Below are positions 4,390 to 63,990 of a stretch of 64,000 bases of DNA, piece by piece; positions within the stretch are counted from its first letter, which is position 1; the number at the start of each line of letters is the position of its first letter. Both the position numbers and the translations under genes were made by a program. The notes below the pieces were generated by a model. The model saw nothing but the letters and a program-made list of their open reading frames with translations. It was not told the DNA's origin and ran no database searches. Where the stretch lies: assembly GCA_023701005.1 (NCBI GenBank), contig JAMPXW010000001.1, positions 207,843 to 271,842 of the forward strand, in the 5' to 3' direction. Origin of the DNA: Burkholderiales bacterium (GTDB lineage Bacteria > Patescibacteriota > Minisyncoccia > Phycocordibacterales > UBA9973).

Positions 4390-4974
4390 ATGAAGCATCC
4401 AAAAGAAGAATTAACATATGTGATGATAAAGCCAGATGGTGTAAGAAAAGGCCTTATCGGAGAGATTATCCGTCGTTTTGAACAACGAGATCTAAAAATT
4501 GTTGCATTGGAAATGTTCCAGCCTACTCACGAACAGATCGATAATCATTATCCAAAAAATCCAGAATGGATAACAAGGCTAGGCGAGAAAACAAAGACAA
4601 CTTATGAGAAATATGGATATGACTTAGTCGCTGATTTTGATACAGATGATACATCAAAAATTGGACCAGAAGTAAGAAAATGGTTGGTTAGCTATATGGT
4701 TAGTTCTCCTTTGGTTAAAATGGTTGTTCAAGGAGTTCATTCAGTAGATGTCGTTCGTAAGATTGCAGGTGATACTATGCCTTATAAAGCAGATATGGGT
4801 ACTATTCGTGGAGATTTTTCTATTGATTCTCCTGCGCTTGCTAATAAAGAAAAAAGAGCTGTTATGAATGTTATTCATTGTTCAGAAACACCAGAAGAAG
4901 CAGCACACGAGATAAAACATTGGTTTGGTGATGTGGAGATCTATTCATACAAACGTTTCGGAGTAGACGAATAA
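4390..4974 (+). CDS. ndk: Nucleoside diphosphate kinase (long form with internal insertion)
   Basis: The N-terminal VMIKPDGVRKGLIGEIIRRFEQRDLKIVALEM and the C-terminal HCSETPEEAAHEIKHWFGD are diagnostic NDK blocks. Confidence 0.8.
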   Translation: MKHPKEELTYVMIKPDGVRKGLIGEIIRRFEQRDLKIVALEMFQPTHEQIDNHYPKNPEWITRLGEKTKTTYEKYGYDLVADFDTDDTSKIGPEVRKWLVSYMVSSPLVKMVVQGVHSVDVVRKIAGDTMPYKADMGTIRGDFSIDSPALANKEKRAVMNVIHCSETPEEAAHEIKHWFGDVEIYSYKRFGVDE

Positions 4975-5711: not shown

Positions 5712-7076
5712 ATGGCAGGAGTAGCAAAAATAACATTTTGTGGAGGTACAGGTTCGGTCACAGGAGCGAACTTTCTTTTTGAAGTGGATGGTAAAAAAAT
5801 ATTGATAGATTGTGGACTTACTCAAGGTAGTGAATTAGCAGATGAGGCTAATTGGGCTCCTTTTTTGTATGACCCAAAAGAAATAGATATTCTTTTTATT
5901 ACTCATTCTCACATAGACCACATAGGTAGAATTCCAAAATTAATAAATGAAGGCTTTGTTGGTAAAATATATTCTACTAAACCTACACGATCTTTGACGG
6001 GTCCTATGCTTGAGGATACCGCTGGTATTTTGTCTAAGAATAAACAATTAAATTTGGCAAAAATCTATACAGAAGAAAATATAAATAAAGCTTTTACACA
6101 ATGGATTTCATTTGATTATTATGAAAAAGTAAAAATTACAGAGAACTTAGAATTTTCTTTTAAAAATGCAGGACATATTTTAGGTTCTGCTATGATAGAG
6201 TTTGTATATAATGGAAAGAAAATTCTTTTTACTGGAGATCTTGGTAATTCTCCATCTCCATTGCTCCCTGATACTGACAAAATAACAGATGCTGATTATC
6301 TAATAATGGAGAGTGTCTATGGAGACAGAAATCATGAATCTAGAAATGATAGAAAGCGCATGTTGGAAAAAGTGATAGAAGATAATTATAAAAGAAAGGG
6401 AACATTAATAATCCCTACTTTTTCTTTGGAGCGTTCTCAAGAACTTTTATTTGAGTTGAATGATTTGGTAGAAAACAATCGTATACCTGTGATGCCAATT
6501 TTCTTTGATTCACCGTTGGCTATTCGTTTAACTGAAATTTTTAAACAATTTAGAACTTACTTTAATGAAGTAGCACAAAAAGCATTATCAGAAGACAAGC
6601 ATTTGTTTGATTTTCCGGGACTTCATTCCACTTTAAAGTCAGAAGAATCAAAATTAATTAACGAAGCACCAAACCCAAAGATAGTTATTGCTGGCTCAGG
6701 AATGTCTTCTGGTGGACGCATTGTACACCATGAGAGACATTTTTTGCCTGATCCGAATAACACTATTTTACTCACAGGTTATCAATCATTAGGAACGATG
6801 GGGCGTTTGATTCAAGAAGGAGTAAAGACAGTTCATATCTCCGGAGAAGAGGTGAGTGTGCGTGCTCATGTAGAAACTATTTTGGGATATTCAGGACATA
6901 AAGATGGAGATGGTTTATTAAATTTTGTGAATGACATGCAAGACAATGTGAAAAAAGTTTTTGTTGTTATGGGTGAACCAAAATCAGCGATGTTTTTAGT
7001 TCAAAGGATTAGAGACAATCTTGGAGTCGATGCTTATGCCCCCGCACAAGGGGATAGTGTTTTACTTTATTTCTGA
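5712..7076 (+). CDS. MBL-fold / beta-CASP family metallo-hydrolase (RNase J / CPSF-like RNA-processing nuclease)
   Basis: HxHxDH motif (THSHIDHIG) with downstream beta-CASP-type D and H residues; 454 aa. Confidence 0.65.
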   Translation: MAGVAKITFCGGTGSVTGANFLFEVDGKKILIDCGLTQGSELADEANWAPFLYDPKEIDILFITHSHIDHIGRIPKLINEGFVGKIYSTKPTRSLTGPMLEDTAGILSKNKQLNLAKIYTEENINKAFTQWISFDYYEKVKITENLEFSFKNAGHILGSAMIEFVYNGKKILFTGDLGNSPSPLLPDTDKITDADYLIMESVYGDRNHESRNDRKRMLEKVIEDNYKRKGTLIIPTFSLERSQELLFELNDLVENNRIPVMPIFFDSPLAIRLTEIFKQFRTYFNEVAQKALSEDKHLFDFPGLHSTLKSEESKLINEAPNPKIVIAGSGMSSGGRIVHHERHFLPDPNNTILLTGYQSLGTMGRLIQEGVKTVHISGEEVSVRAHVETILGYSGHKDGDGLLNFVNDMQDNVKKVFVVMGEPKSAMFLVQRIRDNLGVDAYAPAQGDSVLLYF

Positions 7077-13988: not shown

Positions 13989-14061
13989 CCGCACTTAGCT
14001 CAGTTGGTAGAGCAATCCGCTTATACCGGATCGGTCCTTGGTTCGAGTCCAAGAGTGCGGA
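13989..14061 (+). tRNA. tRNA-Ile with anticodon UAU (reads AUA), 73 nt, no encoded CCA
   Basis: Acceptor CCGCACT/AGTGCGG, U8, D-stem GCTC/GAGC, anticodon stem ATCCG/CGGAT with loop CTTATAC, T-arm CTTGG-TTCGAGT-CCAAG. Confidence 0.6.
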
Positions 14062-14107
14062 CAATAAATAAAAAGAAGAAAGAGTCACATGGTGCTATAC
14101 TTACTCA

Positions 14108-17651: not shown

Positions 17652-17654
17652 GTG

Positions 17655-17741
17655 CGGAGGTGGTGAGATTCGAACTCACGGTTCCGATTAGGGAACGGCG
17701 GTTTAGTAAACCGCTACCTTAAGCCACTCGGTCACACCTCC
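17655..17741 (-). tRNA. Type-II (long variable arm) tRNA with discriminator G73, Ser-like, but the anticodon loop TTACTAA gives an apparent anticodon ACU
   Basis: Minus-strand sequence GGAGGTG-TG-ACC...GGT-A-GCGGT-TTACTAA-ACCGC-(18-nt variable arm)-GTGAG-TTCGAAT-CTCAC-CACCTCC-G. It abuts the recG start codon. Confidence 0.55.
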
Positions 17742-35827: not shown

Positions 35828-35992
35828 ATAGGATGTGGATAACTTTTTTGCATATATATAATGATAAAAGTTATAATATAGGTATTAAAATAAAGTCGAA
35901 AATCTTCATTTAGAAGAATGAAGAAAAAATTATTAGTTTCCGCCAAGCGCGGACGAGCTTTAGCTCGAAATATTATTAGTAAGAAAAAAATT

Positions 35993-36448
35993 ATGAAGAA
36001 TTTTAAAAAAGGTTTTACATTGATTGAATTGTTGGTTGTTGTTGCAATCATCGGTATTTTGGCATCAGTTGTTTTGGCATCATTAAATAGTGCTAGAACA
36101 AAAGGAGCAGATGCTGCTATCAAAGCAAACTTAGCAAACATTCGTGCACAAGCTGAAATTTTATATGATACAGATTCAAATTATGCTAATGTATGTACAA
36201 ATACTACAGTAGCAGCTGCAATTAATTCAGCAAAGACTTCTGCTGGTATTACTGCTGCAACAGTTACAACTTTAGCTACAGCAGGAACAGCTACTACAGC
36301 TGTTTGTCACGTAGCAGCAGACAATGCTTCTTGGGCAGCTGAAGTTCCATTGAAGTCTTCAAGCGCAAATAGTTGGTGTGTAGATAGTACAGGTGCTTCT
36401 ATGCAACTCACAGGATATCTTGGCGCTAGTGACGTAACTTGTAATTAA
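35993..36448 (+). CDS. Type IV major pilin paralog 1 (prepilin with a 7-aa leader, MKNFKKG|FTLIELL)
   Basis: Class III signal (G-FTLIELLVVVAIIG) with Glu at +5. The ORF-track start at 35918 is probably too far upstream. Confidence 0.7.
   Translation: MKNFKKGFTLIELLVVVAIIGILASVVLASLNSARTKGADAAIKANLANIRAQAEILYDTDSNYANVCTNTTVAAAINSAKTSAGITAATVTTLATAGTATTAVCHVAADNASWAAEVPLKSSSANSWCVDSTGASMQLTGYLGASDVTCN
36023..36124. repeat. 102-bp block 100% identical to 36636..36737 (pilin paralogs 1 and 2), inside a region of roughly 170 bp with more limited flanking similarity
   Basis: Direct comparison of the two pilin 5' regions. Confidence 0.85.
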
Positions 36449-36563
36449 TATATATTTATATACAAAAAAACTACCCTGCTTGGGGTAGTTTTTTTGTTTT
36501 TATATGTGATATAATAAATATAGAAATGGGGCCGATTTATTAATATATTATTAAGTTAATTTT

Positions 36564-37109
36564 ATGAAGAATTTATCAAAAAGTTTCAAGCAAGGTTCCG
36601 CCTCGGCTTGCCGAAGACGAGACGGGTTTACGTTAATTGAATTGTTGGTTGTTGTTGCAATCATCGGTATTTTGGCATCAGTTGTTTTGGCATCATTAAA
36701 TAGTGCTAGAACAAAAGGAGCAGATGCTGCTATCAAATCTAATTTAGCAAATATGCGTGCGCAAAGTGAAATTTTGTATGACAAGAATGGGAGGTATGAT
36801 ATAGATACGACGGCGACAACAGTTGCGGCTGCTGCATGTACAAATACAGCCAATAGTCTTTTTGCTGATCCAACTATATGGGGTCAAGTTAACAGTGCTT
36901 TGTCTTCTTCTGGTGGTTTGGATTCATGTATGGTTGGGCCATCAGCGGATTCATGGGCAGTCGTAGTGCAAATGAAACAAAATCCAAATACGGAAGCATG
37001 GTGTGTAGATAGCTCTGGTGCTTCAAAAAAAGAAACTCTTGATGGTTCTCCCATTCAAACTGAATTAAATGCTCTTGTTACTGATGGAATAATAGCTAAG
37101 TGTGATTAA
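36564..37109 (+). CDS. Type IV pilin paralog 2 with an extended 21-aa leader carrying a 10-codon GC-rich insert (SASACRRRDG)
   Basis: MKNLSKSFKQG-SASACRRRDG-FTLIELLVVVAIIG. Identical to paralog 3 except for the 30-nt insertion ttccgcctcggcttgccgaagacgagacgg. Confidence 0.7.
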   Translation: MKNLSKSFKQGSASACRRRDGFTLIELLVVVAIIGILASVVLASLNSARTKGADAAIKSNLANMRAQSEILYDKNGRYDIDTTATTVAAAACTNTANSLFADPTIWGQVNSALSSSGGLDSCMVGPSADSWAVVVQMKQNPNTEAWCVDSSGASKKETLDGSPIQTELNALVTDGIIAKCD

Positions 37110-37127
37110 TATTAAAAATTATTTATT

Positions 37128-37652
37128 ATGAAGAATTTATCAAAAAGTTTCAAGCGAGGTTTTACGTTAATCGAATTGTTGGTTGTTGTTGCTATCATCG
37201 CCATTTTGGTTGCGGTGATTATGGCGTCGACTACGGAATCTAGAAATAGGGGGGCAGATGCAGGTATAAAAACGAATCTTAATACCATAAAAGGAGCAGC
37301 AGAATTGTTTTATGTTAATCCTTTAACGGTCGCACCTACAAAGCCTGCTTTTTCTTTTGGTAGTGATATTAGTGGGAATTGTCCTTCTTATAGCGCTAGT
37401 TCGAACGTTATGTTTCAAAGAGATAAAAACATAGCTGATGCTATTGCAGAAGCCACCAAGAGATCTAGTGTAAATTATGCTTTTTGTGATGCGAATGCTA
37501 CAAACTGGGCTGTTGGTGTCGTTTTGAAGACTGATGCTAAATCTGCTTGGTGTGTTGATAGTTCTAACGCTTCTAAGAAGGTTACTCGTGTTGCTAATGG
37601 CGCAATGGTCATAAGTGATGTCATCGACACAGCCACTCATTTGTGTAAATAG
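37128..37652 (+). CDS. Type IV pilin paralog 3 (11-aa leader, MKNLSKSFKRG|FTLIELL)
   Basis: Class III signal peptide; divergent C-terminal domain with a Cys pair. Confidence 0.7.
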   Translation: MKNLSKSFKRGFTLIELLVVVAIIAILVAVIMASTTESRNRGADAGIKTNLNTIKGAAELFYVNPLTVAPTKPAFSFGSDISGNCPSYSASSNVMFQRDKNIADAIAEATKRSSVNYAFCDANATNWAVGVVLKTDAKSAWCVDSSNASKKVTRVANGAMVISDVIDTATHLCK

Positions 37653-37668
37653 TTATTAATATAAAATT

Positions 37669-38448
37669 ATGACTTTTTCTCTTGCAATAATTTTTTTTGG
37701 ATTGGGTTTAATAATAGGAAGTTTTTTGAATGTTGTTATATTTAGATTTAATACACAACGTTCATTTGGGGGCAGGAGTGGATGTATGGTTTGTCAAAAG
37801 AAACTTTCTTGGTATGAGCTTTTCCCAGTTTTTAGTTTTATTTTCTTGAGAGGGAGATGCAAGGGTTGTAAAACAAAAATTTCCATTCAATATCCTATAG
37901 TAGAATTATTATCTGGATTTATATTCTTATCAATATTTTTGAAGTTTCAAGATGTTTTCTATTTTGACACTTTGAATTTTACTATATCTTATGCATATTA
38001 TGTGGCTATTTTTTCTATGTTTCTCGTTATTGCAGTTTATGATTATAAACATAAAATAATACCAGATATTTTCTCAATTTTTTTGGGAGTAATAACTTTC
38101 ATAGGTTTATTTCTATTTGAAGATTTTGCTTTTTCTCCGCATATTCCATCCTTGTTGCAATTTTTATCTGGGATATTCTTAGCATTACCTTTTGCTTTTA
38201 TTTGGCTTATTTCTAAAGGAACTTGGATGGGCTTGGGTGATGCGAAGCTTTCTCTCAGCTTGGGGTGGCTTTTGGGGTACGGAATGTTACTCTCAGCGGG
38301 GGTTTTGGCTTTTTGGTCTGGAGCTATTGTGGGAATATTTCTTTTACTTTTTTCAAAAAAATATGGAATAAAAAGTGAAATACCTTTTGCCCCATTTTTA
38401 GTTTTAGGAGTTTTTCTTTCGTTCATTTTCGAATTAAGATTTTTTTAG
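37669..38448 (+). CDS. pilD: Prepilin peptidase (A24 family) PilD
   Basis: N-terminal tetra-Cys (CMVCQKK...CKGCK), catalytic Asp pair in a polytopic membrane protein, and a GDAKL motif. Confidence 0.85.
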   Translation: MTFSLAIIFFGLGLIIGSFLNVVIFRFNTQRSFGGRSGCMVCQKKLSWYELFPVFSFIFLRGRCKGCKTKISIQYPIVELLSGFIFLSIFLKFQDVFYFDTLNFTISYAYYVAIFSMFLVIAVYDYKHKIIPDIFSIFLGVITFIGLFLFEDFAFSPHIPSLLQFLSGIFLALPFAFIWLISKGTWMGLGDAKLSLSLGWLLGYGMLLSAGVLAFWSGAIVGIFLLLFSKKYGIKSEIPFAPFLVLGVFLSFIFELRFF

Positions 38449-56059: not shown

Positions 56060-56275
56060 ATATTATTAATAAAATTAAAATCGCCCCGACAAAAATGAAA
56101 AAGTCTCATTTTTGTCGGGGCGAGTCTAGTTCGCGGTTCCACCCAACTTTGTTCTTTTTGTTTATAGATTAGCCTTTACGGTCCTATTTTTATAGGATTA
56201 TGGTTGGTAGCCATAACAATCTCTATTCCCCTAAGAATATCATTTTTTTGATAAAAGTACAATAATTTTGCATTT
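56060..56275 (-). promoter_or_regulatory. T-box riboswitch leader for thrS (minus strand)
   Basis: The minus strand carries the T-box consensus GGGTGGAACCGCG (plus-strand 56132-56144). It is followed by a 16-bp terminator hairpin (plus 56082-56122) and a U-run, then thrS. An upstream stem I region carries a candidate ACC (Thr) specifier in ggctACCaacc. Confidence 0.55.
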
Positions 56276-56305
56276 CTTATGGAATATGCTACTATAGGTT
56301 ACATT

Positions 56306-56530
56306 ATGGTAGTACGAATGAGACATACAAAATCACATACGAAAAACCGACGTTCTCACCACGCATTGGAGAGTACGAGTTTTGCTAAATGTGAAAATTG
56401 TAAGAGTTTAAAGCGACGTCATACGGTTTGTTCCTCTTGTGGATTTTATCGTGGGATGAAAGTTTTAGATTTAGTAAAAAAGATAGAAAAGAAGCAAAAG
56501 AAAGAAAAGGCGGCTCAAGCAAAGAGCTAG
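56306..56530 (+). CDS. rpmF: 50S ribosomal protein L32
   Basis: RHTKSHTKNRRSHHAL ... CENCKSLKRRHTVCSSCGFYRG is the L32 zinc-ribbon. The ORF-track start at 56279 is probably too early. Confidence 0.8.
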   Translation: MVVRMRHTKSHTKNRRSHHALESTSFAKCENCKSLKRRHTVCSSCGFYRGMKVLDLVKKIEKKQKKEKAAQAKS

Positions 56531-58310: not shown

Positions 58311-60548
58311 ATGAGATTAAAGAACCTCGAAATAAATGGTTTTAAATCTTTCGCGAAAAAAACTGTTTTAGAGTTTCAACATCCTGTCGTATCTATTGTG
58401 GGTCCAAATGGATCAGGTAAATCAAATGTAGTAGAAGCATTGCGTTTTGTTCTAGGAGAACAGTCCATGAAATCAATGCGTGGCTCACAAGGAGCGGATT
58501 TGATATTTAAAGGTTCAAAGAATTTACCAAAGAGTTCTAGGGCCAGCGTGACTATATATTTTGATAATTCTGATAATGTTTTCAAATTATCGAATGAAAC
58601 TGGAGAGAATTTAAATTTAAATTACGATGTGATATCTATTTCTCGTGAAGTTTTTTCTGATGGTTTAAATAAATATATTTTAAATGGGTCAGAGGTTAGA
58701 TTGAAAGATATAAATAATTTATTGTCATCTGTTAATATTGGTTCTTCTGGACATCACATAATCTCACAAGGAGAGGCAGATAGGATTTTGAATGCATCGC
58801 CAAAAGATAGGAGAGAGATGGTAGAAGATGCTCTCGGTTTGAAAATATATCAATATAAAATAAAAGAAGCAGGACGCAAGCTAGAGAGAACAGCAAATAA
58901 TATGAAAGAAGTTTCTCTTTTGCGTCGCGAGAATGCTCCACATTTAAATTTCTTAAGGAAACAAGTTGATAAATTTGAAAAAGCGAAAGAAATGCAAGTT
59001 AGCTTGTTGTCTTTGTATAATGAGTATTTGAAAAAAGAAAGTATCTATTTAGAAAATGAAAAACAAAATCTTTCGAATGAAAAGAACAAAATAGTTGCTG
59101 AATTAGAAAGCATAAAAGATAAGATAGAAAGTGTAGAAGAAGAAAACATAATAGAAAGTGAAAAAGAAAAACAATTGAAAGATTTAGAAAGAAAGGTAAA
59201 CGAGATTCGTCACGTAAAGGGTGAAATAGAACGAAAATTGGGAAGAATAGAGGGAATGATAGAAATGGAAGAAAGGAGAGAGAAGAAGGCTCCAGCAATT
59301 GTTGTAAAAAATCCCGAAGAAATAAAAGCAATTTTTGATGAGATTGCTGAAGAAATAGAAGTGGCTATTGTTGAAGAAAATGTTTCTGAGATTAAGTTCA
59401 TTCTTTTGAGAATAAAAGATGTTTTGCAAAAATTTAATCAGACAGAAGAAAAGACAGAGAATCATTCCATCAATTCAGAAATTTTGGAGTTGAAAAATGA
59501 TCAACAAAGGATCTTGTCTGAAATGCAAAATATTACCAACGAAGAGAATAAGATTTTTGAGAGCATTCAGGTTTTGAGAGGTCAAATAAGAGAAGAGAAA
59601 GAAATTTTACATACAAAAGAGAAAGAGAGGTTTAATTTTAGAGTTAGAAACCAAGAATTAACTTCTCATTTAGAAATAATTTCAGTAAAAGAATACAACT
59701 TATCCAAACAACAAGAATCATTTGAAAACGAATTGAGGGAGGGGTCTATACTTATTGGAAATGATATTTTGAATTATAAAAATTTCGAGGCTTCTTTGGA
59801 AGTGGATCGTGGGCTTCAAGAAGAATTAAAAAGAAAAATTGAACGTATAAAAATAAAATTAGAAGATGTTGGTTTAGGAGGAGGGGCTGATGTTTTGAAA
59901 GAATATGAAGAAGTGTCTCAAAGAGATAGTTTTTTGGCTAAAGAGATGGAAGATTTAGCTAAGAGCATAGAATCACTACGTTTGTTGATAGCAGACTTGA
60001 AAGAGAAAATAGATATAGAATTTAAAGAAGGTATCAAAAAAATAAATATAGAATTTAGTAAATTCTTTTCTCTGATGTTTGGAGGAGGGGAGGGATATTT
60101 ATCAGTAGTTACAGAAAATAAAAAGAAAAAAAATAACGAAGAATCCTTCGAAACCACTCGGGATGATTCTGGTGAATCAGATATAATATTTGAACAGGGT
60201 ATAGAAATAAATGTGACTCTTCCTCATAAAAAGGTGAAAGAATTGAATGCTCTTTCAGGAGGAGAAAGATCTCTTACTTCTATTGCTCTTTTGTTTGCGA
60301 TGTCTCAAGTAAATCCACCACCATTCTTAGTTTTAGATGAGACAGATGCGGCTTTAGATGAAGCAAACTCACGAAAATATGGAGATATGTTAGAAAAACT
60401 TTCTCATCATTCTCAGCTTGTCGTTGTCACACACAACAGAGAGACGATGTCTCGAGCAGGTATTTTGTATGGGGTTACAGTCGGAGCTGACGGTGCCTCA
60501 AAACTTCTTTCAGTAAAACTAGATGAAGCAAAAGCGATTGCAAAATAA
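58311..60548 (+). CDS. smc: SMC-family chromosome segregation ATPase (short form, 745 aa)
   Basis: N-terminal Walker A GPNGSGKSN, long coiled coil, C-terminal signature LSGGERSLTSIALLFAM, and Walker B/D-loop FLVLDETDAALD. Confidence 0.8.
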   Translation: MRLKNLEINGFKSFAKKTVLEFQHPVVSIVGPNGSGKSNVVEALRFVLGEQSMKSMRGSQGADLIFKGSKNLPKSSRASVTIYFDNSDNVFKLSNETGENLNLNYDVISISREVFSDGLNKYILNGSEVRLKDINNLLSSVNIGSSGHHIISQGEADRILNASPKDRREMVEDALGLKIYQYKIKEAGRKLERTANNMKEVSLLRRENAPHLNFLRKQVDKFEKAKEMQVSLLSLYNEYLKKESIYLENEKQNLSNEKNKIVAELESIKDKIESVEEENIIESEKEKQLKDLERKVNEIRHVKGEIERKLGRIEGMIEMEERREKKAPAIVVKNPEEIKAIFDEIAEEIEVAIVEENVSEIKFILLRIKDVLQKFNQTEEKTENHSINSEILELKNDQQRILSEMQNITNEENKIFESIQVLRGQIREEKEILHTKEKERFNFRVRNQELTSHLEIISVKEYNLSKQQESFENELREGSILIGNDILNYKNFEASLEVDRGLQEELKRKIERIKIKLEDVGLGGGADVLKEYEEVSQRDSFLAKEMEDLAKSIESLRLLIADLKEKIDIEFKEGIKKINIEFSKFFSLMFGGGEGYLSVVTENKKKKNNEESFETTRDDSGESDIIFEQGIEINVTLPHKKVKELNALSGGERSLTSIALLFAMSQVNPPPFLVLDETDAALDEANSRKYGDMLEKLSHHSQLVVVTHNRETMSRAGILYGVTVGADGASKLLSVKLDEAKAIAK

Positions 60549-60627: not shown

Positions 60628-61038
60628 ATGAGGTGCCTCATGGAAATTAATTCAGCGAGAATTCTCGTAGTAGATGATGTTGCAGCTTGCACTGCAATCA
60701 TCATGAAAATTTTAAAAGAAAATTCTTTTAAAAATGTTATATCCGCTTCTAATGGTGTAGATGCTATTAGCTTATGTGCTAATTCTGAGTTTGATTTAGT
60801 ACTAATTGGTCCAGGACGTTCGGTATTAAATAGTTTTGAAACCATCGGCACGATAAGAGACATACCAATACCTCTTTTTAAAAAAATCCCTATCATTGCG
60901 ATGATAAAAGATGAAAAAGATTCAAAAGAAGAAGTTTTATTTGCAGGAGCAACAGACGTTATTTTAAAGCCTATAAAAAAAGAAGATCTTGTAGGCATAT
61001 TAAAAAAATATTTAGAAAAGGAACCTAAGGAAGATTAA
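60628..61038 (+). CDS. Orphan single-domain response regulator (CheY-like receiver)
   Basis: ILVVDDVAACTAIIMKILKE...DLVLIG...K receiver pattern. Confidence 0.65.
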   Translation: MRCLMEINSARILVVDDVAACTAIIMKILKENSFKNVISASNGVDAISLCANSEFDLVLIGPGRSVLNSFETIGTIRDIPIPLFKKIPIIAMIKDEKDSKEEVLFAGATDVILKPIKKEDLVGILKKYLEKEPKED

Positions 61039-61039
61039 C

Positions 61040-61095
61040 TTGGCTCGGTGTGTTTTATGACGCACCGAGCCTTTTTTATTTAAATTTTAATTTTT
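61040..61095. repeat. Left copy of a 56-bp direct repeat; it contains a terminator hairpin (ggctcggtgtgttttatgacgcaccgagcc plus T-run). The right copy is 62065..62120, with 42 nt identical and then 2 mismatches
   Basis: Direct comparison of the two copies in the sequence. Confidence 0.85.
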
Positions 61096-61112
61096 ATAAG
61101 ATATATAATTAT

Positions 61113-61142
61113 CCCCATATACGCCATAGCGTATATGGGGAT
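61113..61142. repeat. Perfect 12-bp-stem palindrome ccccatatacgc-cata-gcgtatatgggg, upstream of the cas2-like gene. A degenerate second copy is at 61557..61586
   Basis: Read from sequence. The second copy is cctcatatcagccatggcgtatacgggg. Confidence 0.7.
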
Positions 61143-61161
61143 TGAGTGATATTATTTATAT

Positions 61162-61548
61162 ATGAGTTTTAAAAGAAAATTATATTATAGAGGAATGGAA
61201 GTGAATTCTTTTGGTATCCCAATTTTTTCACAAGGCAGAAAGAGTCGTTCAAAGATGAAAAACAGAAAGAGAACTTTTTATAATATTGCTTTTTATTCTC
61301 CTTTTAATAAAGATTCTTCAAAAAATTTAATCGTAATGTACGATATTCCTTCTGATAAGAAAAAAGAAAGAGATTGGTTTCGCAGACAATTGATAAAATT
61401 TAATTATATTATGATTCAAAAAAGCGTTTGGGTGGGCCCCTCTCCATTGCCAAAAGATTTTTTAGATTATTTAAAAGAGATAAAGATAGGGGATAACTTT
61501 AAAACATTTAAATTAGCTAAATCTTATACTAATTTTAAAAAAGTTTAA
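61162..61548 (+). CDS. cas2: Cas2-family protein (type-II-like) with an approximately 50-aa N-terminal extension; solo, no cas1/cas9/array in the window
   Basis: NLIVMYDIPSDKKKERDWFRRQLIKFNYIMIQKSVWVG aligns with the S. pyogenes Cas2 core [38 protein letters not shown] (alignment done from memory). Confidence 0.5.
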   Translation: MSFKRKLYYRGMEVNSFGIPIFSQGRKSRSKMKNRKRTFYNIAFYSPFNKDSSKNLIVMYDIPSDKKKERDWFRRQLIKFNYIMIQKSVWVGPSPLPKDFLDYLKEIKIGDNFKTFKLAKSYTNFKKV

Positions 61549-61683
61549 TAATTTAAACTTCCTCATATCAGCCATGGCGTATACGGGGAAGAAGAGATAT
61601 AAACATACAAAACTTGACATGTAAAGAGAGAGAGTATTCTGAGTTAAATTTGTACAAATAAATTTAACTAATTTGAGGTTAGT

Positions 61684-62013
61684 ATGGCCTTATCTGCAAA
61701 TGAACGTGAAGAAGAGTTCGAAAAAGTTCTTCTTATGGGTATTGGATTGCCTTGTCCAAAAAATATGCCTATTAAAGAACTTTCAAAAAAATCCCTTGAG
61801 ATGATAGATAAATTACTATTATCAATGCAAGAGATATTTGATGTTTCTCCTGATAAAGGTGAACAAGTTCGGTTGGCATTTATTATTAGGCAACTTCAAG
61901 AGTTCAAAAAAGAAATAGAAAAAAATGAGTTTTTTGTTTACCTTAGATTTTCTTATTTGGCTGCTTTAAGCCAAGGAATTATGGTATATAAAAGAGAATT
62001 TAAGTTAATCTAA
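61684..62013 (+). CDS. Hypothetical 109-aa protein inside the cassette
   Basis: ORF only; acidic N-terminus; no family recognised. Confidence 0.3.
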   Translation: MALSANEREEEFEKVLLMGIGLPCPKNMPIKELSKKSLEMIDKLLLSMQEIFDVSPDKGEQVRLAFIIRQLQEFKKEIEKNEFFVYLRFSYLAALSQGIMVYKREFKLI

Positions 62014-62064
62014 AGGATTTCATTAAACTTTTTAAAATTGCAGAAGAAATTTTGGATGTTTGAT

Positions 62065-62120
62065 TTGGCTCGGTGTGTTTTATGACGCACCGAGCCTTTT
62101 TTATTTGAATTTTAGTTTTT
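62065..62120. repeat. Right copy of the 56-bp direct repeat and terminator hairpin. Its distal end encodes the last five codons of the convergent 62101..63990 gene
   Basis: Identical to 61040-61081, then near-identical. Confidence 0.85.
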
Positions 62121-63990
62121 CTTCTTTGCCGTTTATTATTTTTTCTATTTTAAATAATTTGTTTAATTTAGAAATATTTTTCTTTACTGTCATACCACCA
62201 TCTTTGTCTAATTTAATCTCAACTATCATACCCTCCATTGTGTTTTTAGAAAAACCTTGGTCAAAGATAAAATTACCGAGTGAATACATAATATAGCCGT
62301 CTTTGTAAATTTCTGTATCTTCTACAACATGAGGATGATGTCCGACAACTATTTTTGCTCCAGAATCGATAGCTTTATGAGCTAGATATTCTTGTCTTTT
62401 GTTGTGTATTGTCTTGTATTCATCTCCAAAATGAAATGATACTATTAAATGATCTACTAATTTAGATGCATTATTTATTATTTCTTCAAAACGAGGGTTG
62501 TTTGCTAATAGTATTCCGGCACTTTCTTCTGTTGCTTTCATCCAGTTTGGCCCTACATCTGAGAACCCTAGATATCCTATTTTGATACCATATTTTTCTA
62601 TGATTACAGGCCTTTCTGCTTCTGTATTATTTATACCTCCTCCAGTATAAAATATTTCATTTTCTTCTAAACGAGATAGTGTGTCAGCGAAAGCTTCTCT
62701 TTTCCAATCTCCCATATGATTGTTTGCAACAGACATTATATCAAAACCTGCTCCTTTTATAGCTGGTATTACTGAAGGATCCATCCTAAATGAATATAAA
62801 TTACGCATGTCTTTTCCTTTATCTGAGGCGGGTCCTTCTAAATTGGCAAAAGATATATCTGATTTTTTTAATAATGTTAATTTTTCAAACAAAAAAGAAA
62901 AGTCCCCGTTAAAGTTTTTATTCACAGAGCTTTCTACCCCTCGATCGAGCATCATATCTCCGACAAAAGTTAGATTTACATAATCTTGATCATAAATTAT
63001 AGGAAGATCTGTTCTTTCTTTTACCCAAGCTACACTCGCATCAGATGCTCCTCCATAATAAATATTTTTATTTAAATATTTTAAAATATTTTCTACATCT
63101 TTTAATCTATCTTTACTTCTTAAAAGAGAGATAGAGATGTGGCGTGTGCCCGTCTTTGAAAGGGGAAGAGAGAAAGTAGATATGACCGTTTGTAAGGCAG
63201 GATATGTAAAACCGCTTTTACCTCCAGTATAATTTTCCTTACGTAAAAATTGACTTATATTAAACCATGTATGTTTTTTTTCTGAATAATTGCGTTTTGT
63301 TGTTATTTCAAATATGTCTGGATTTTTTAATTTTATATAGCCAGCTAATTTGAACATATCTAAAGCTGTTGATTGATTGTTTGCTGAGAGACCACTAGGG
63401 TCTTCAAAAGATGTCTTTTCTAAATTTAATTTTAAAGAGTTTTGATTCATTCTTTTTATAAAAATATTTCTATCGAAATATTGAGCGATGGCTTCAGCTG
63501 CGTCATTACTAGATTCTAAGAGTAGGGGGTATATCAAAGTAGAAATTTTTATTTTTTCATTTATTTTTAAATTTCCATTATTTCCACTGGTTGTTAATAT
63601 TTTTTGGGAAATCTTCACAGTATCATCTGTATTCATTAATTCTTTAGCTGTTAACGCAGTCATGAGCTTGGAGACAGAAGCTAATGGGAATCTCATATCT
63701 TCATTTTTTTTCAAAATTATTTCTCCTGTATCTAGGTCTCCTACGACATAGGCTTCTGCACTTACTGTAGGTTTTAAATATTGATCTTTCGCAAAATAGG
63801 CCAATTGAGGAATATTCTCTTCTGTGTAAATAGGGTAGCCTTCGATGGCTAATGCTTTATTTTCGGCATTTGTTGTTATTGTTTTAAAATTTATATTTTT
63901 AATTAAAAAAGAAGCCAAAAAGATACCAATAATTATGGAGGATATTATTAAAGTTGTTATTTTTATTTTTTTACTTAATTCAAATTTCAT
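62101..63990 (-). CDS. Fusion of a D-alanyl-D-alanine carboxypeptidase (peptidase S11, PBP5-like) with a C-terminal CapA/PgsA-like metallophosphoesterase domain; N-terminal membrane anchor
   Basis: SxxK motif ASVSKLMTA in the N-terminal half. The C-terminal half (FVGDMMLDRGV ... GNHMGDW ... GHHPHV) matches the CapA (PGA_cap) calcineurin-like family. Confidence 0.65.
   Translation of the reverse strand: MKFELSKKIKITTLIISSIIIGIFLASFLIKNINFKTITTNAENKALAIEGYPIYTEENIPQLAYFAKDQYLKPTVSAEAYVVGDLDTGEIILKKNEDMRFPLASVSKLMTALTAKELMNTDDTVKISQKILTTSGNNGNLKINEKIKISTLIYPLLLESSNDAAEAIAQYFDRNIFIKRMNQNSLKLNLEKTSFEDPSGLSANNQSTALDMFKLAGYIKLKNPDIFEITTKRNYSEKKHTWFNISQFLRKENYTGGKSGFTYPALQTVISTFSLPLSKTGTRHISISLLRSKDRLKDVENILKYLNKNIYYGGASDASVAWVKERTDLPIIYDQDYVNLTFVGDMMLDRGVESSVNKNFNGDFSFLFEKLTLLKKSDISFANLEGPASDKGKDMRNLYSFRMDPSVIPAIKGAGFDIMSVANNHMGDWKREAFADTLSRLEENEIFYTGGGINNTEAERPVIIEKYGIKIGYLGFSDVGPNWMKATEESAGILLANNPRFEEIINNASKLVDHLIVSFHFGDEYKTIHNKRQEYLAHKAIDSGAKIVVGHHPHVVEDTEIYKDGYIMYSLGNFIFDQGFSKNTMEGMIVEIKLDKDGGMTVKKNISKLNKLFKIEKIINGKEEKLKFK

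Follow-up and report, generated by a model that had tools for sequence, protein, structure and literature searches.

Described proteins that come close to the locus analyzed here are CRISPR Cas2, PaaX and the C proteins of restriction-modification (R-M) systems. In the Cas1-Cas2 integrase, Cas2 binds DNA without sequence specificity. PaaX is, according to its Pfam description, a dimeric repressor of palindromic operators that contains the Cas2-like domain PF20803, and C proteins such as C.PvuII and C.AhdI are small dimers with a palindromic operator just upstream of their own leaderless gene. The present analysis concerns a stretch of 64,000 nucleotides (positions 207,843 to 271,842 of contig JAMPXW010000001.1, forward strand), the whole of which is called the window in the following. 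Near its right end, the gene of a Cas2-like protein is flanked by two palindromes, pal1 and pal2, and this module lies together with a small open reading frame (ORF), ORF109, between the two copies of a direct repeat (Table 1). The module is widespread and conserved, and represents an apparently undescribed use of the Cas2 fold. We consider it probable that two things are superimposed at this locus, namely a resident module (61111-61591) and a younger repeat.

The Cas2-like protein and its palindromic sites

The 128-aa protein has PF20803 as its best Pfam match (49.1 bits, E = 6e-13, cut-off 24). It also exceeds the cut-offs of the CRISPR Cas2 models PF09827 (30.9 bits, cut-off 23.8) and TIGR01573 (30.6 bits, cut-off 24.5), and contains no other Pfam domain; PADLOC returned generic Cas2 models only (3e-8). 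An AF2 monomer model of low confidence (pLDDT 59), of which only the fold class was used, has exclusively Cas2 proteins as its best Foldseek matches, with probabilities of 0.96-1.0 and E about 0.03 and several of them from DNA-bound Cas1-Cas2, and matches PaaX (PDB 8a39) as well. The ferredoxin-like fold of CRISPR Cas2 is recovered at the confidence of this model, which also comprises an N-terminal beta-hairpin and a basic, disordered arm, and the conserved Asp at the end of strand beta-1 is present. Across 47 and 49 sequences, Y60 and D61 do not vary, and further invariant residues are R70, W72, R75, Q86, S88, W90, G92, P93 and P95. A basic N-terminal extension of about 50 residues is conserved too, and the family as a whole is as conserved as housekeeping genes.

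By sequence and by fold the protein belongs to the Cas2/PaaX_M superfamily, but it has neither the context of CRISPR Cas2 nor the architecture of PaaX. The original prediction had called the gene an orphan, and CRISPR context is indeed absent. The module contains neither cas1 nor any other cas gene, it is surrounded in the window by SMC, a receiver gene, ORF109 and a DacA-CapA fusion gene, and instead of a regularly spaced repeat array the 64-kb window has two palindrome copies with the gene between them. The same is true of the 75 loci introduced below, in which no cas cluster was found and the recurrent neighbors are rpsL/rpsG/fusA, folD/PAP2/secD and SMC/RNase III. To our knowledge, Paceibacterota almost never have CRISPR. 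Relative to CRISPR Cas2, the module adds the basic N-terminal extension, flanking cognate palindromes, a leaderless gene and an operator-like site. The N-terminal winged-helix and C-terminal domains of PaaX are missing from the protein (TIGR02277, 17.1 bits vs. a cut-off of 264.55), and in the module it appears to be the Cas2-like core itself, via residue 64, that reads DNA. Public records nevertheless name family members "CRISPR-associated endonuclease Cas2", and some are called "DNA-binding transcriptional regulator PaaX" by JGI. Thousands of Paceibacterota genes carry one of these names, and our results suggest that they are neither. They look like a distinct family in which, judged from sequence, the Cas2 fold itself would read a specific palindromic DNA site. 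No description of the family was found in the full-text literature, including papers on the CRISPR content of candidate phyla radiation (CPR) bacteria, although the coverage was incomplete and an earlier description is possible.

The protein has 1809 homologues in Nomurabacteria/Paceibacterota, many of them at 70-90% identity. Our set of loci (designated L) comprises 80 loci from species-representative genomes with 75 full-length family genes. A palindromic site is located upstream of the gene in 70/75 cases, downstream in 69/75 and on both sides in 67/75. The sites are palindromes of 20-34 bp of the type ...ACGCCATGGCGT... / ...ATATACGCCATGGCGTATAT... and share the conserved core ...T-A-C-G-C-C-A-T-G-G-C-G-T-A.... 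A 20-nt position weight matrix (PWM) detected 135 sites with at least 20 bits in 769 kb, 129 of which lie within 160 nt of a family gene and six elsewhere. Its only matches in the window are at 61117 (30.7 bits) and 61565 (25.6 bits), with the next best reaching 12.8 bits. The two palindromes are related, as had been noticed in the original prediction, and a search for further palindromes in the window gave only this flanking pair.

In the relatives the two palindromes accompany the gene. Their outer arms are 70% identical within a locus vs. 45% between loci, distant family members (41-48% identity) keep the architecture with quite different palindromes, and paralogues within one genome mostly have different sites (L013/L047; L034/L042/L086; L051/L073; the two modules of L053). 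Typically, one member of the pair is asymmetric and has TCAGCC in place of TACGCC, with the variant half on the gene-5' side in 48 sites vs. about three in the mirror orientation. The downstream site lies 15-35 nt after the stop codon or, in one subfamily (...ISAMA*), contains it. In about 20 loci of this kind (e.g., L021, L022, L024-L027, L030, L031, L033-L035) the last residues of the protein are ...ISAMA* or ...ISAIA*, with the TAA stop codon inside the site ATATCAGCCATGGCGTAAAT.

Promoter geometry and proposed recognition of the sites

A match to TATAAT (at least 5/6) is present at offset 22-23 from the center of the upstream site in 87% of the loci, and the ATG follows 6-9 nt further on. 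Offset and spacing are indicative of a leaderless mRNA with the palindrome over the -35 region, i.e., of a palindrome at a fixed position that overlaps the promoter of its own gene, as is typical of an autoregulator. No fixed-distance promoter box was found after the downstream site across the loci.

The co-evolution of protein and site is documented by the matching of the outer arms within loci and by residue 64, which is located in the loop after Y60-D61-I-P. This residue is D/E in 17/17 proteins whose upstream site has a center other than C..G (CTATAG, CTATCG, CGATAG and one CCATAG) and H/S/Q/N/A/F in 46/50 proteins with CCATGG. In a neighbor-joining (NJ) tree with 67 tips, calculated with the residue-64 column masked, the residue class switched at least 10 times and the site center at least 14 times, and 63/67 tips are concordant. 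Not one of 20000 random placements of 10 changes resulted in more than 55 concordant tips. Site position +-8 covaries best with residues 29-46, a relationship that is confounded by phylogeny. Together, these data represent strong indirect evidence that a Cas2-like dimer would be placed over the palindrome, its two-fold axis and the pair of conserved Asp residues coinciding with the dyad.

A different interpretation is that the palindromes are RNA elements, i.e., terminator, stabilizer or processing hairpins, which the Cas2-like protein might even cut as an RNase; such an activity has been reported for Cas2 and VapD proteins. As RNA, pal1 gives a good fold (-23.7 kcal/mol, z = -6.5), and the asymmetric half-site has a fixed strand orientation with respect to the gene, but the -10 box is situated between pal1 and the ATG, so that the upstream site is not transcribed with its own gene. 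In the common downstream variant the stem is interrupted, and pal2 forms a weak hairpin (-12.1 kcal/mol, z = -2.3) without a U-run; neither the palindromes nor the repeat are covered by a family in Rfam. Moreover, positions +-2 covary (C..G 92 and T..A 22 vs. 7 mixed; Fisher p = 4e-17, not phylogeny-corrected) and keep the dyad symmetry in the very loop of the presumed hairpin, where they could not pair because they would enclose a 2-nt loop. This pattern favors recognition of the sites as duplex DNA by a protein that would be two-fold symmetric, and we regard the RNA interpretation as clearly improbable.

We propose that the small protein of the Cas2/PaaX_M fold, expressed from a leaderless gene, binds the flanking palindromes as a two-fold symmetric dimer on duplex DNA. 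The loop after Tyr60-Asp61 would read the center of the site and the basic N-terminal arms would read the outer positions. Because of the promoter geometry, with the upstream site over the gene's -35 region, the protein is most likely a repressor of its own gene. The downstream site, which abuts or overlaps the stop codon, may serve as a boundary, a roadblock or a second operator, and a nuclease or nicking activity at the site center is a possible prediction. By analogy, the module would work most like a small autoregulator with its cognate operator, and it resembles the C proteins in the small dimer, the upstream operator, the leaderless gene and the likely autoregulatory logic. C proteins have a helix-turn-helix, their tandem operators are confined to the upstream side, and a neighboring nuclease gene is under their control, whereas the module differs in its fold, in the second site downstream and in the absence of a fixed partner gene: neighbor clustering across the 75 loci revealed no conserved partner.

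If the proposed binding is true, it would be the first sequence-specific mode of DNA recognition for the Cas2 fold and would come with a specificity code, in which His/Ser at residue 64 specifies CCATGG and Asp/Glu specifies CTATAG. The module would then also provide a compact natural repressor-operator pair, and a data point on the roles of Cas2-like proteins outside or before CRISPR and on the question why Cas2 works with palindromic repeats.

The bracketing repeat and the residence of the module

The direct repeat extends over 67 nt with 91% identity. It had originally been described as a 56-bp repeat of 42 identical nt followed by 14 nt with two mismatches, which is correct for the part concerned; the repeat is slightly longer. 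Its exact core of 42 nt (61040-61081 / 62065-62106) is followed on the right by the 14 nt with two mismatches and preceded on the left by 11 nt with four. The 30-nt hairpin GGCTCGGTGTGTTTTATGACGCACCGAGCC occurs in two exact copies in the window vs. zero expected (100 shuffles). Both copies have a folding energy of -25.1 kcal/mol (z about -8) with the U-run UUUUUUAUUU next on the + strand, and thus combine the G+C-rich hairpin and the U-run of an intrinsic terminator. On the - strand the hairpin has -20.1 kcal/mol and the U-run is absent, so that the element is a canonical terminator for + strand genes only. Of the shared bidirectional terminator that had been postulated, the duplication and the presence of the last dacA/capA codons are retained, but not the bidirectionality. 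The right copy encodes the true C-terminus and stop codon of dacA/capA (EKLKFK*) and the left copy contains a fossil thereof (KLKFK*).

This genome does not habitually duplicate its terminators, because no second intergenic repeat of the terminator kind exists elsewhere in the 64-kb window. The search for further copies that the original prediction had suggested gave, within the window, a single repeat of its kind, and the routine duplication of terminators that would have made an insertion superfluous was not seen. A search with the terminator hairpin across 241 million metagenome records gave 11 matches, all of them chance matches in unrelated high-G+C contigs, and no copies from close relatives. 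A weak Rfam match to the L20 leader over the left terminator (E = 0.069, 26 bits vs. a gathering score of 58.7) was taken as chance.

The repeat might be an assembly artefact, i.e., the true sequence might be "receiver gene - T - dacA/capA" (T denotes the terminator) plus a separate circular or tandem unit of 1025 bp, or a mixture of two strains, with the assembly passing through the 42-nt repeat along the wrong path. The independent Logan assembly of run SRR23907158 (k=31) breaks at both copies and its graph allows both paths: a contig of 1043 nt, 100% identical to 61052-62094, ends within both hairpins, and a contig of 16.4 kb stops 31 nt past the receiver gene. These breaks are the expected behavior of a k=31 graph at an exact repeat of 42 nt, which indicates that the repeat is present in the reads. 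The exact core is also shorter than a normal read, the 277-kb contig of the metagenome-assembled genome (MAG) spans the repeat, and copy-specific variants to the right of the core link A/A with pal1 and G/G with dacA/capA. As the linear order module - ORFx - dacA/capA (ORFx denotes the variable ORF after the second palindrome) is moreover the rule in relatives, an artefact is very improbable indeed.

The comparison with relatives shows that the module resides at this place independently of the repeat. In at least seven related genomes (L011, L012, L013, L015, L019, L108 and L109) the unit of palindrome, Cas2-like gene and palindrome comes 29-110 nt after SMC and precedes the convergent dacA/capA gene, with no response regulator at this place. 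In L108 and L109 the SMC stop codon and the first palindrome are 29 nt apart and the second palindrome is about 25 nt from the PGA_cap stop. The nearest genomes with long contigs have the order L32 - NusB/NUDIX - RNase III - SMC - Cas2-like - small ORF - (convergent) DacA/CapA - RNase R. The Cas2-like proteins of the SMC|dacA slot are mutual nearest relatives, which is indicative of vertical descent. The small ORFs located behind the second palindrome in L011, L012, L013, L015 and L102 are unrelated, those of L011-L013 and L015 occupying the ORFx slot. The sole homologue of ORF109 (71% aa identity) is located at the same position of the dacA/capA junction in L102-L107. Here, the alignment, which covers pal1 onward as the contigs of L102-L107 begin inside pal1, has about 86% nucleotide identity from the first palindrome through the promoter and gene of ORF109 and then runs into an unrelated terminator hairpin. 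As module and ORF109 are orthologous in L102-L107 in spite of a different terminator, this cargo is older than the nearly identical repeat. The original prediction of the Cas2-like cassette as inserted cargo finds no support at this locus, given L102-L107 and the seven relatives with the unit right after SMC. The anticipated empty site "response regulator - single terminator - dacA/capA" was found nowhere; in the relatives the cargo is present but repeat and receiver gene are both missing, and a site with the cargo absent and a single repeat copy, as known from att elements, was not found among them.

What the relatives lack is the receiver gene, which is absent between SMC and pal1 in all seven. 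In an alignment from the 3' end of SMC to the ATG of the Cas2-like gene, about 520-560 nt of the window are missing from L011, L012, L013, L015 and L019, corresponding to the receiver gene and the left terminator copy, and these two are the lineage-specific DNA. In a word-index search the receiver gene found itself alone at E<1e-3. Its best non-self matches in an exhaustive HMMER scan of 1.8 billion cluster representatives are receiver domains of hybrid kinases with 31-35% identity. A Gly is aligned with the phospho-acceptor D57 of CheY, D12, D13 and K109 being kept. The product is a putative pseudo-receiver, without the phospho-acceptor Asp in the receiver domain that defines a two-component response regulator. 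No kinase or output domain is encoded near the receiver gene. Its GC3 of 0.19 is host-like.

We therefore distinguish the resident module from the repeat, which is a later and local event because the bracketed segment is orthologous in L102 with another terminator, the copies here are 96-100% identical, and the only component without relatives, the receiver gene, lies outside the bracket. The repeat would be a young, lineage-specific duplication of the terminator between ORF109 and dacA/capA together with the last seven dacA/capA codons, which happened after module and ORF109 were in place. The left copy may now terminate the pseudo-receiver gene and shield the module promoter from read-through. 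Three routes are conceivable: (a) a templated short copy of T behind a newly gained receiver gene, retained for insulating the operator-promoter; (b) a tandem duplication followed by differential loss; or (c) a local hop of [module + ORF109] across an existing receiver gene that duplicated T. Routes (a) and (b) together are given more weight than (c).

In the alternative scenario, a small integrative or transposing cassette [pal1 - Cas2-like - pal2 - ORF109] (re-)inserted into the terminator behind the receiver gene and duplicated 56-67 nt of the target, with an att-like restoration of the target 3' end and a recombinase in trans or the Cas2-like protein itself taking part. The family does change its position over evolutionary time. 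Recurrent slots are rpsL-rpsG|module|fusA (13 loci), folD|module|PAP2-secD (11) and SMC|module|dacA/capA (7) besides many others, the module nearly always has the same orientation as its neighbors, and some genomes have two to three copies. The rpsG-fusA slot is polyphyletic and has been occupied by at least 4-5 unrelated Cas2-like lineages whose nearest relatives are located in other slots; both flanks of the module are variable, and in this str slot 90-650 nt upstream and 150-770 nt downstream are different from species to species. In L014 and L020 the module lies in the spacer that separates the thrS leader from rpmF, which has no module in the window, and the SMC and dacA/capA stop codons are only 5 nt apart, i.e., the SMC|dacA junction is empty. 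In L088 (3968-5260) an inverted module between SMC and dacA/capA has both palindromes and a gene that is internally deleted after residue ~71. The mixed occupancy of the rpsG-fusA slot, the empty junction of L014 and L020 and the inverted copy of L088 would be compatible with a mobile cassette, as would the sharp ends of the repeat and the dacA/capA 3' fossil in its left copy. The dacA/capA gene of the L088 MAG is also fragmented.

A layout that resembles a cassette array, and that would equally suit an insertion, is found at five loci, where a third copy of the palindrome brackets an extra, unrelated gene X (for example folD|site|gene X|site|Cas2-like|site). The length of gene X differs between the genomes: 187 aa (L030 4300-5340), 219 aa (L040 3718-4860), 171 aa (L056 2728-3740), 207 aa (L031 94-1210) and 402 aa (L039 1429-3170). 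Such site|variable gene|site|gene|site arrays, as well as the combination of a small gene with imperfect palindromes, are reminiscent of REP/RAYT, IS200/IS605 and integron attC systems. The module belongs to none of these systems, since the HUH/Y1 or IntI domain is absent from the proteins of the window and the palindromes are not dispersed (6/135 away from a family gene); in addition, the dyad symmetry of the module runs through the would-be loop positions.

The same topology as in the window recurs in L071, in the rpsG-fusA slot, and in L015. Among 72 loci, a direct repeat of at least 25 nt brackets the module only in the window and in L071, where the order is rpsG - ORF98 - T - pal1 - gene - pal2 - ORF82 - T - fusA. 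T is here an exact repeat of 34 nt (4910-4943 and 5786-5819) that forms an unrelated terminator, and ORF98 and ORF82 are unique to the genome. L015 contains a diverged fossil of 38 nt of its own dacA/capA end between SMC and pal1, without an extra gene (4882-4919 and 5963-6000; GKEKKIIFEK* vs. GKEEKVVFEK*); its score of 41 compares with 18.6 +- 2.9 for shuffled sequences, 0/500 of which reach it. In the window, L071 and L015 the end of the left copy and pal1 are 1-30 nt apart, the distance from the ORFx stop codon to the start of the right copy is 10-45 nt, and the bracketed unit is always [pal1 - gene - pal2 - ORFx]. Like att-type integrative elements and CRISPR spacer integration, the locus has a direct repeat of tens of nt around about 1 kb, a fossil 3' end on the left with the target 3' end restored, and a hairpin in the duplicated unit. 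The cargo, however, predates the repeat, as orthologous module and ORF109 sequences are at the same place in L102-L107 with a different terminator. SMC lies directly upstream of pal1 in seven relatives, and the receiver gene, which this scenario takes for the older resident, is alone in having no relatives. No integrase, transposase or Cas1 is present; as had been stated originally, only the Cas2-like ORF and ORF109 are located between the repeats, and neither matches a recombinase family. Searches of IMG/VR viral contigs, phage records, plasmids and PHROGs gave no matches to the Cas2-like family, 69/72 loci are without a bracket repeat, and the varying lengths of the duplications (34, 38 and 56-67 nt) are unlike those of a transposase with a fixed stagger. 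Insertion of a cassette is accordingly unlikely in our judgment.

The diverged fossil at the equivalent place in L015, without an extra gene, could also point to an old target duplication, which would date from the first arrival of the module at SMC|dacA and would have been kept alike by gene conversion or selection, the receiver gene being inserted later in front of the left copy. Empty sites of the L014/L020 type with SMC and dacA stop codons 5 nt apart would suit this scenario, and both copies act as + strand terminators. On the other hand, five other relatives of the SMC slot have spacers of 30-46 nt and no fossil, none follows directly after the SMC stop codon in the window or in L011, L012, L013, L019 and L108, and the boundaries of the fossils differ (7 codons here vs. 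about 12 in L015). Since the hairpin part of T is not conserved even in comparison with L102, the exact core of 42 nt including the loop would require a recent conversion. An old duplication seems clearly improbable to us.

Several points weigh against our combination of a DNA-binding resident module with a younger repeat. We infer DNA binding and autorepression from patterns at the level of sequence, and the structural model is of low confidence. A purely symmetric binder does not explain the oriented asymmetric half-site. DNA looping between the two sites is not specifically supported, the helical phasing of the sites (398-566 nt apart) being not significant (Rayleigh p about 0.33). The sites are known only beside their own gene, which leaves the protein without an obvious cellular function. 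Regarding the repeat, the topology of the brackets, which L071 and L015 share, is no less compatible with an insertion that duplicated a long stretch of target than with a terminator copied behind a new gene, and the L102-L107 comparison starts within pal1.

A more far-reaching idea, to which we assign a small chance, is that the Cas2-fold protein recognizes and perhaps nicks the palindromes by means of the loop beside the catalytic Asp of Cas2 and thereby constitutes a new chromosomal CPR cassette, which would move itself and turn over neighboring small genes. It would leave long target duplications with a hairpin behind, comparable to the duplication of a CRISPR repeat upon spacer integration but without Cas1, and thus represent an ancestral link between Cas2 and palindromic repeats, an equally speculative extension. 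On its own, the duplicated terminator is a minor local rearrangement. Lineage-specific small genes and bracket duplications have hot spots in the module's flanks, which bears on gene gain in very small genomes.

Features of the window and further observations

The features of the locus are compiled in Table 1. Gene identities were derived from Pfam/NCBIfam profile matches and from synteny in relatives. RNase III and NusB/NUDIX are encoded to the left of SMC.

Table 1. Coordinates of the SMC-dacA/capA region in the window (positions of the 64,000-nt stretch)
Feature	Position	Strand	Evidence or remark
SMC gene, conserved left neighbor in the clade	58311..60548	+	PF02463 at 5e-58; synteny L32-NusB/NUDIX-RNase III-SMC in relatives
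Orphan stand-alone receiver gene, 132 aa	60640..61038	+	PF00072 at 4e-13
Left repeat copy	61029..61095	.	Last codons and stop of the receiver gene, hairpin 61042-61071, T-run, fossil of the last 5 dacA/capA codons and stop
pal1, upstream palindrome ATCCCCATATACGCCATAGCGTATATGGGGAT	61111..61142	.	Center between 61126 and 61127; PWM 30.7 bits; proposed operator over -35
Extended -10 box TGATATTAT	61147..61155	+	6 nt before ATG (61162)
Cas2-like gene	61162..61548	+	PF20803 6e-13, PF09827 3e-7, TIGR01573 30.6 bits
pal2, downstream palindrome CTTCCTCATATCAGCCATGGCGTATACGGGGAAG	61558..61591	.	Asymmetric TCAGCC variant; center between 61574 and 61575; PWM 25.6 bits
ORF109 promoter-like region TTGACA ... 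TATTCT	61614..61640	+	Read from sequence; kept in L011 and L102
ORF109	61684..62013	+	Variable ORFx slot between pal2 and dacA/capA
Right repeat copy	62054..62120	.	Hairpin 62067-62096, T-run, genuine last dacA/capA codons and stop
DacA (Peptidase_S11)-CapA (PGA_cap) fusion gene, conserved right neighbor	62101..63990	-	PF09587 4e-69, PF00768 1e-34; synteny in relatives

ORF109, whose length of 109 aa agrees with its first description, has no matches in Pfam, NCBIfam or PADLOC. Neither ORF109 nor the receiver gene has a paralogue within the window, and the similarity of the regions upstream of the two genes is not significant (94/1000 shuffles score equally). The longest-ORF versions of the Cas2-like and receiver proteins have no exact database record.

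In base composition (32% G+C) and in gene content, the window agrees with a genome of the Paceibacterota (Nomurabacteria-like). The identical proteins P0121 and P0122 are deposited under a "Burkholderiales bacterium" MAG, and the relatives are all Paceibacterota/Nomurabacteria; the contig looks mis-binned or mislabelled. Many of the relatives are also labelled "uncultured Candidatus Saccharibacteria" or "Gammaproteobacteria".

The thrS-rpmF spacer of the window (56113-56308, - strand) contains a T-box-like leader with the motif TTGGGTGGAACCGCGAAC and a terminator hairpin at 56081-56123. The leader reaches 25.1 bits in Rfam vs. a gathering threshold of 93 (E = 0.015) and is conserved in L014 and L020 beside the inserted Cas2-like module. 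Just upstream of rpmF, L002/L012 (120-1491) harbors a bAvd-like gene and a reverse transcriptase gene (PF22296, RVT_1), which likely represent a diversity-generating retroelement.

Elsewhere in the window (35918-38448), a prepilin-peptidase-like membrane protein is encoded after three tandem paralogues (176, 181 and 174 aa) whose N-termini GFTLIELLVVVAIIGIL resemble those of type IV pilins; these paralogues account for the repeat families D1, D4, D6 and D7. ARAGORN candidates for tRNA-Ile (TAT) at 13989-14062 and tRNA-Ser (ACT) at 17654-17741 have unusual anticodon calls, and the latter is adjoined by a divergent tRNA-Ser(GCT).

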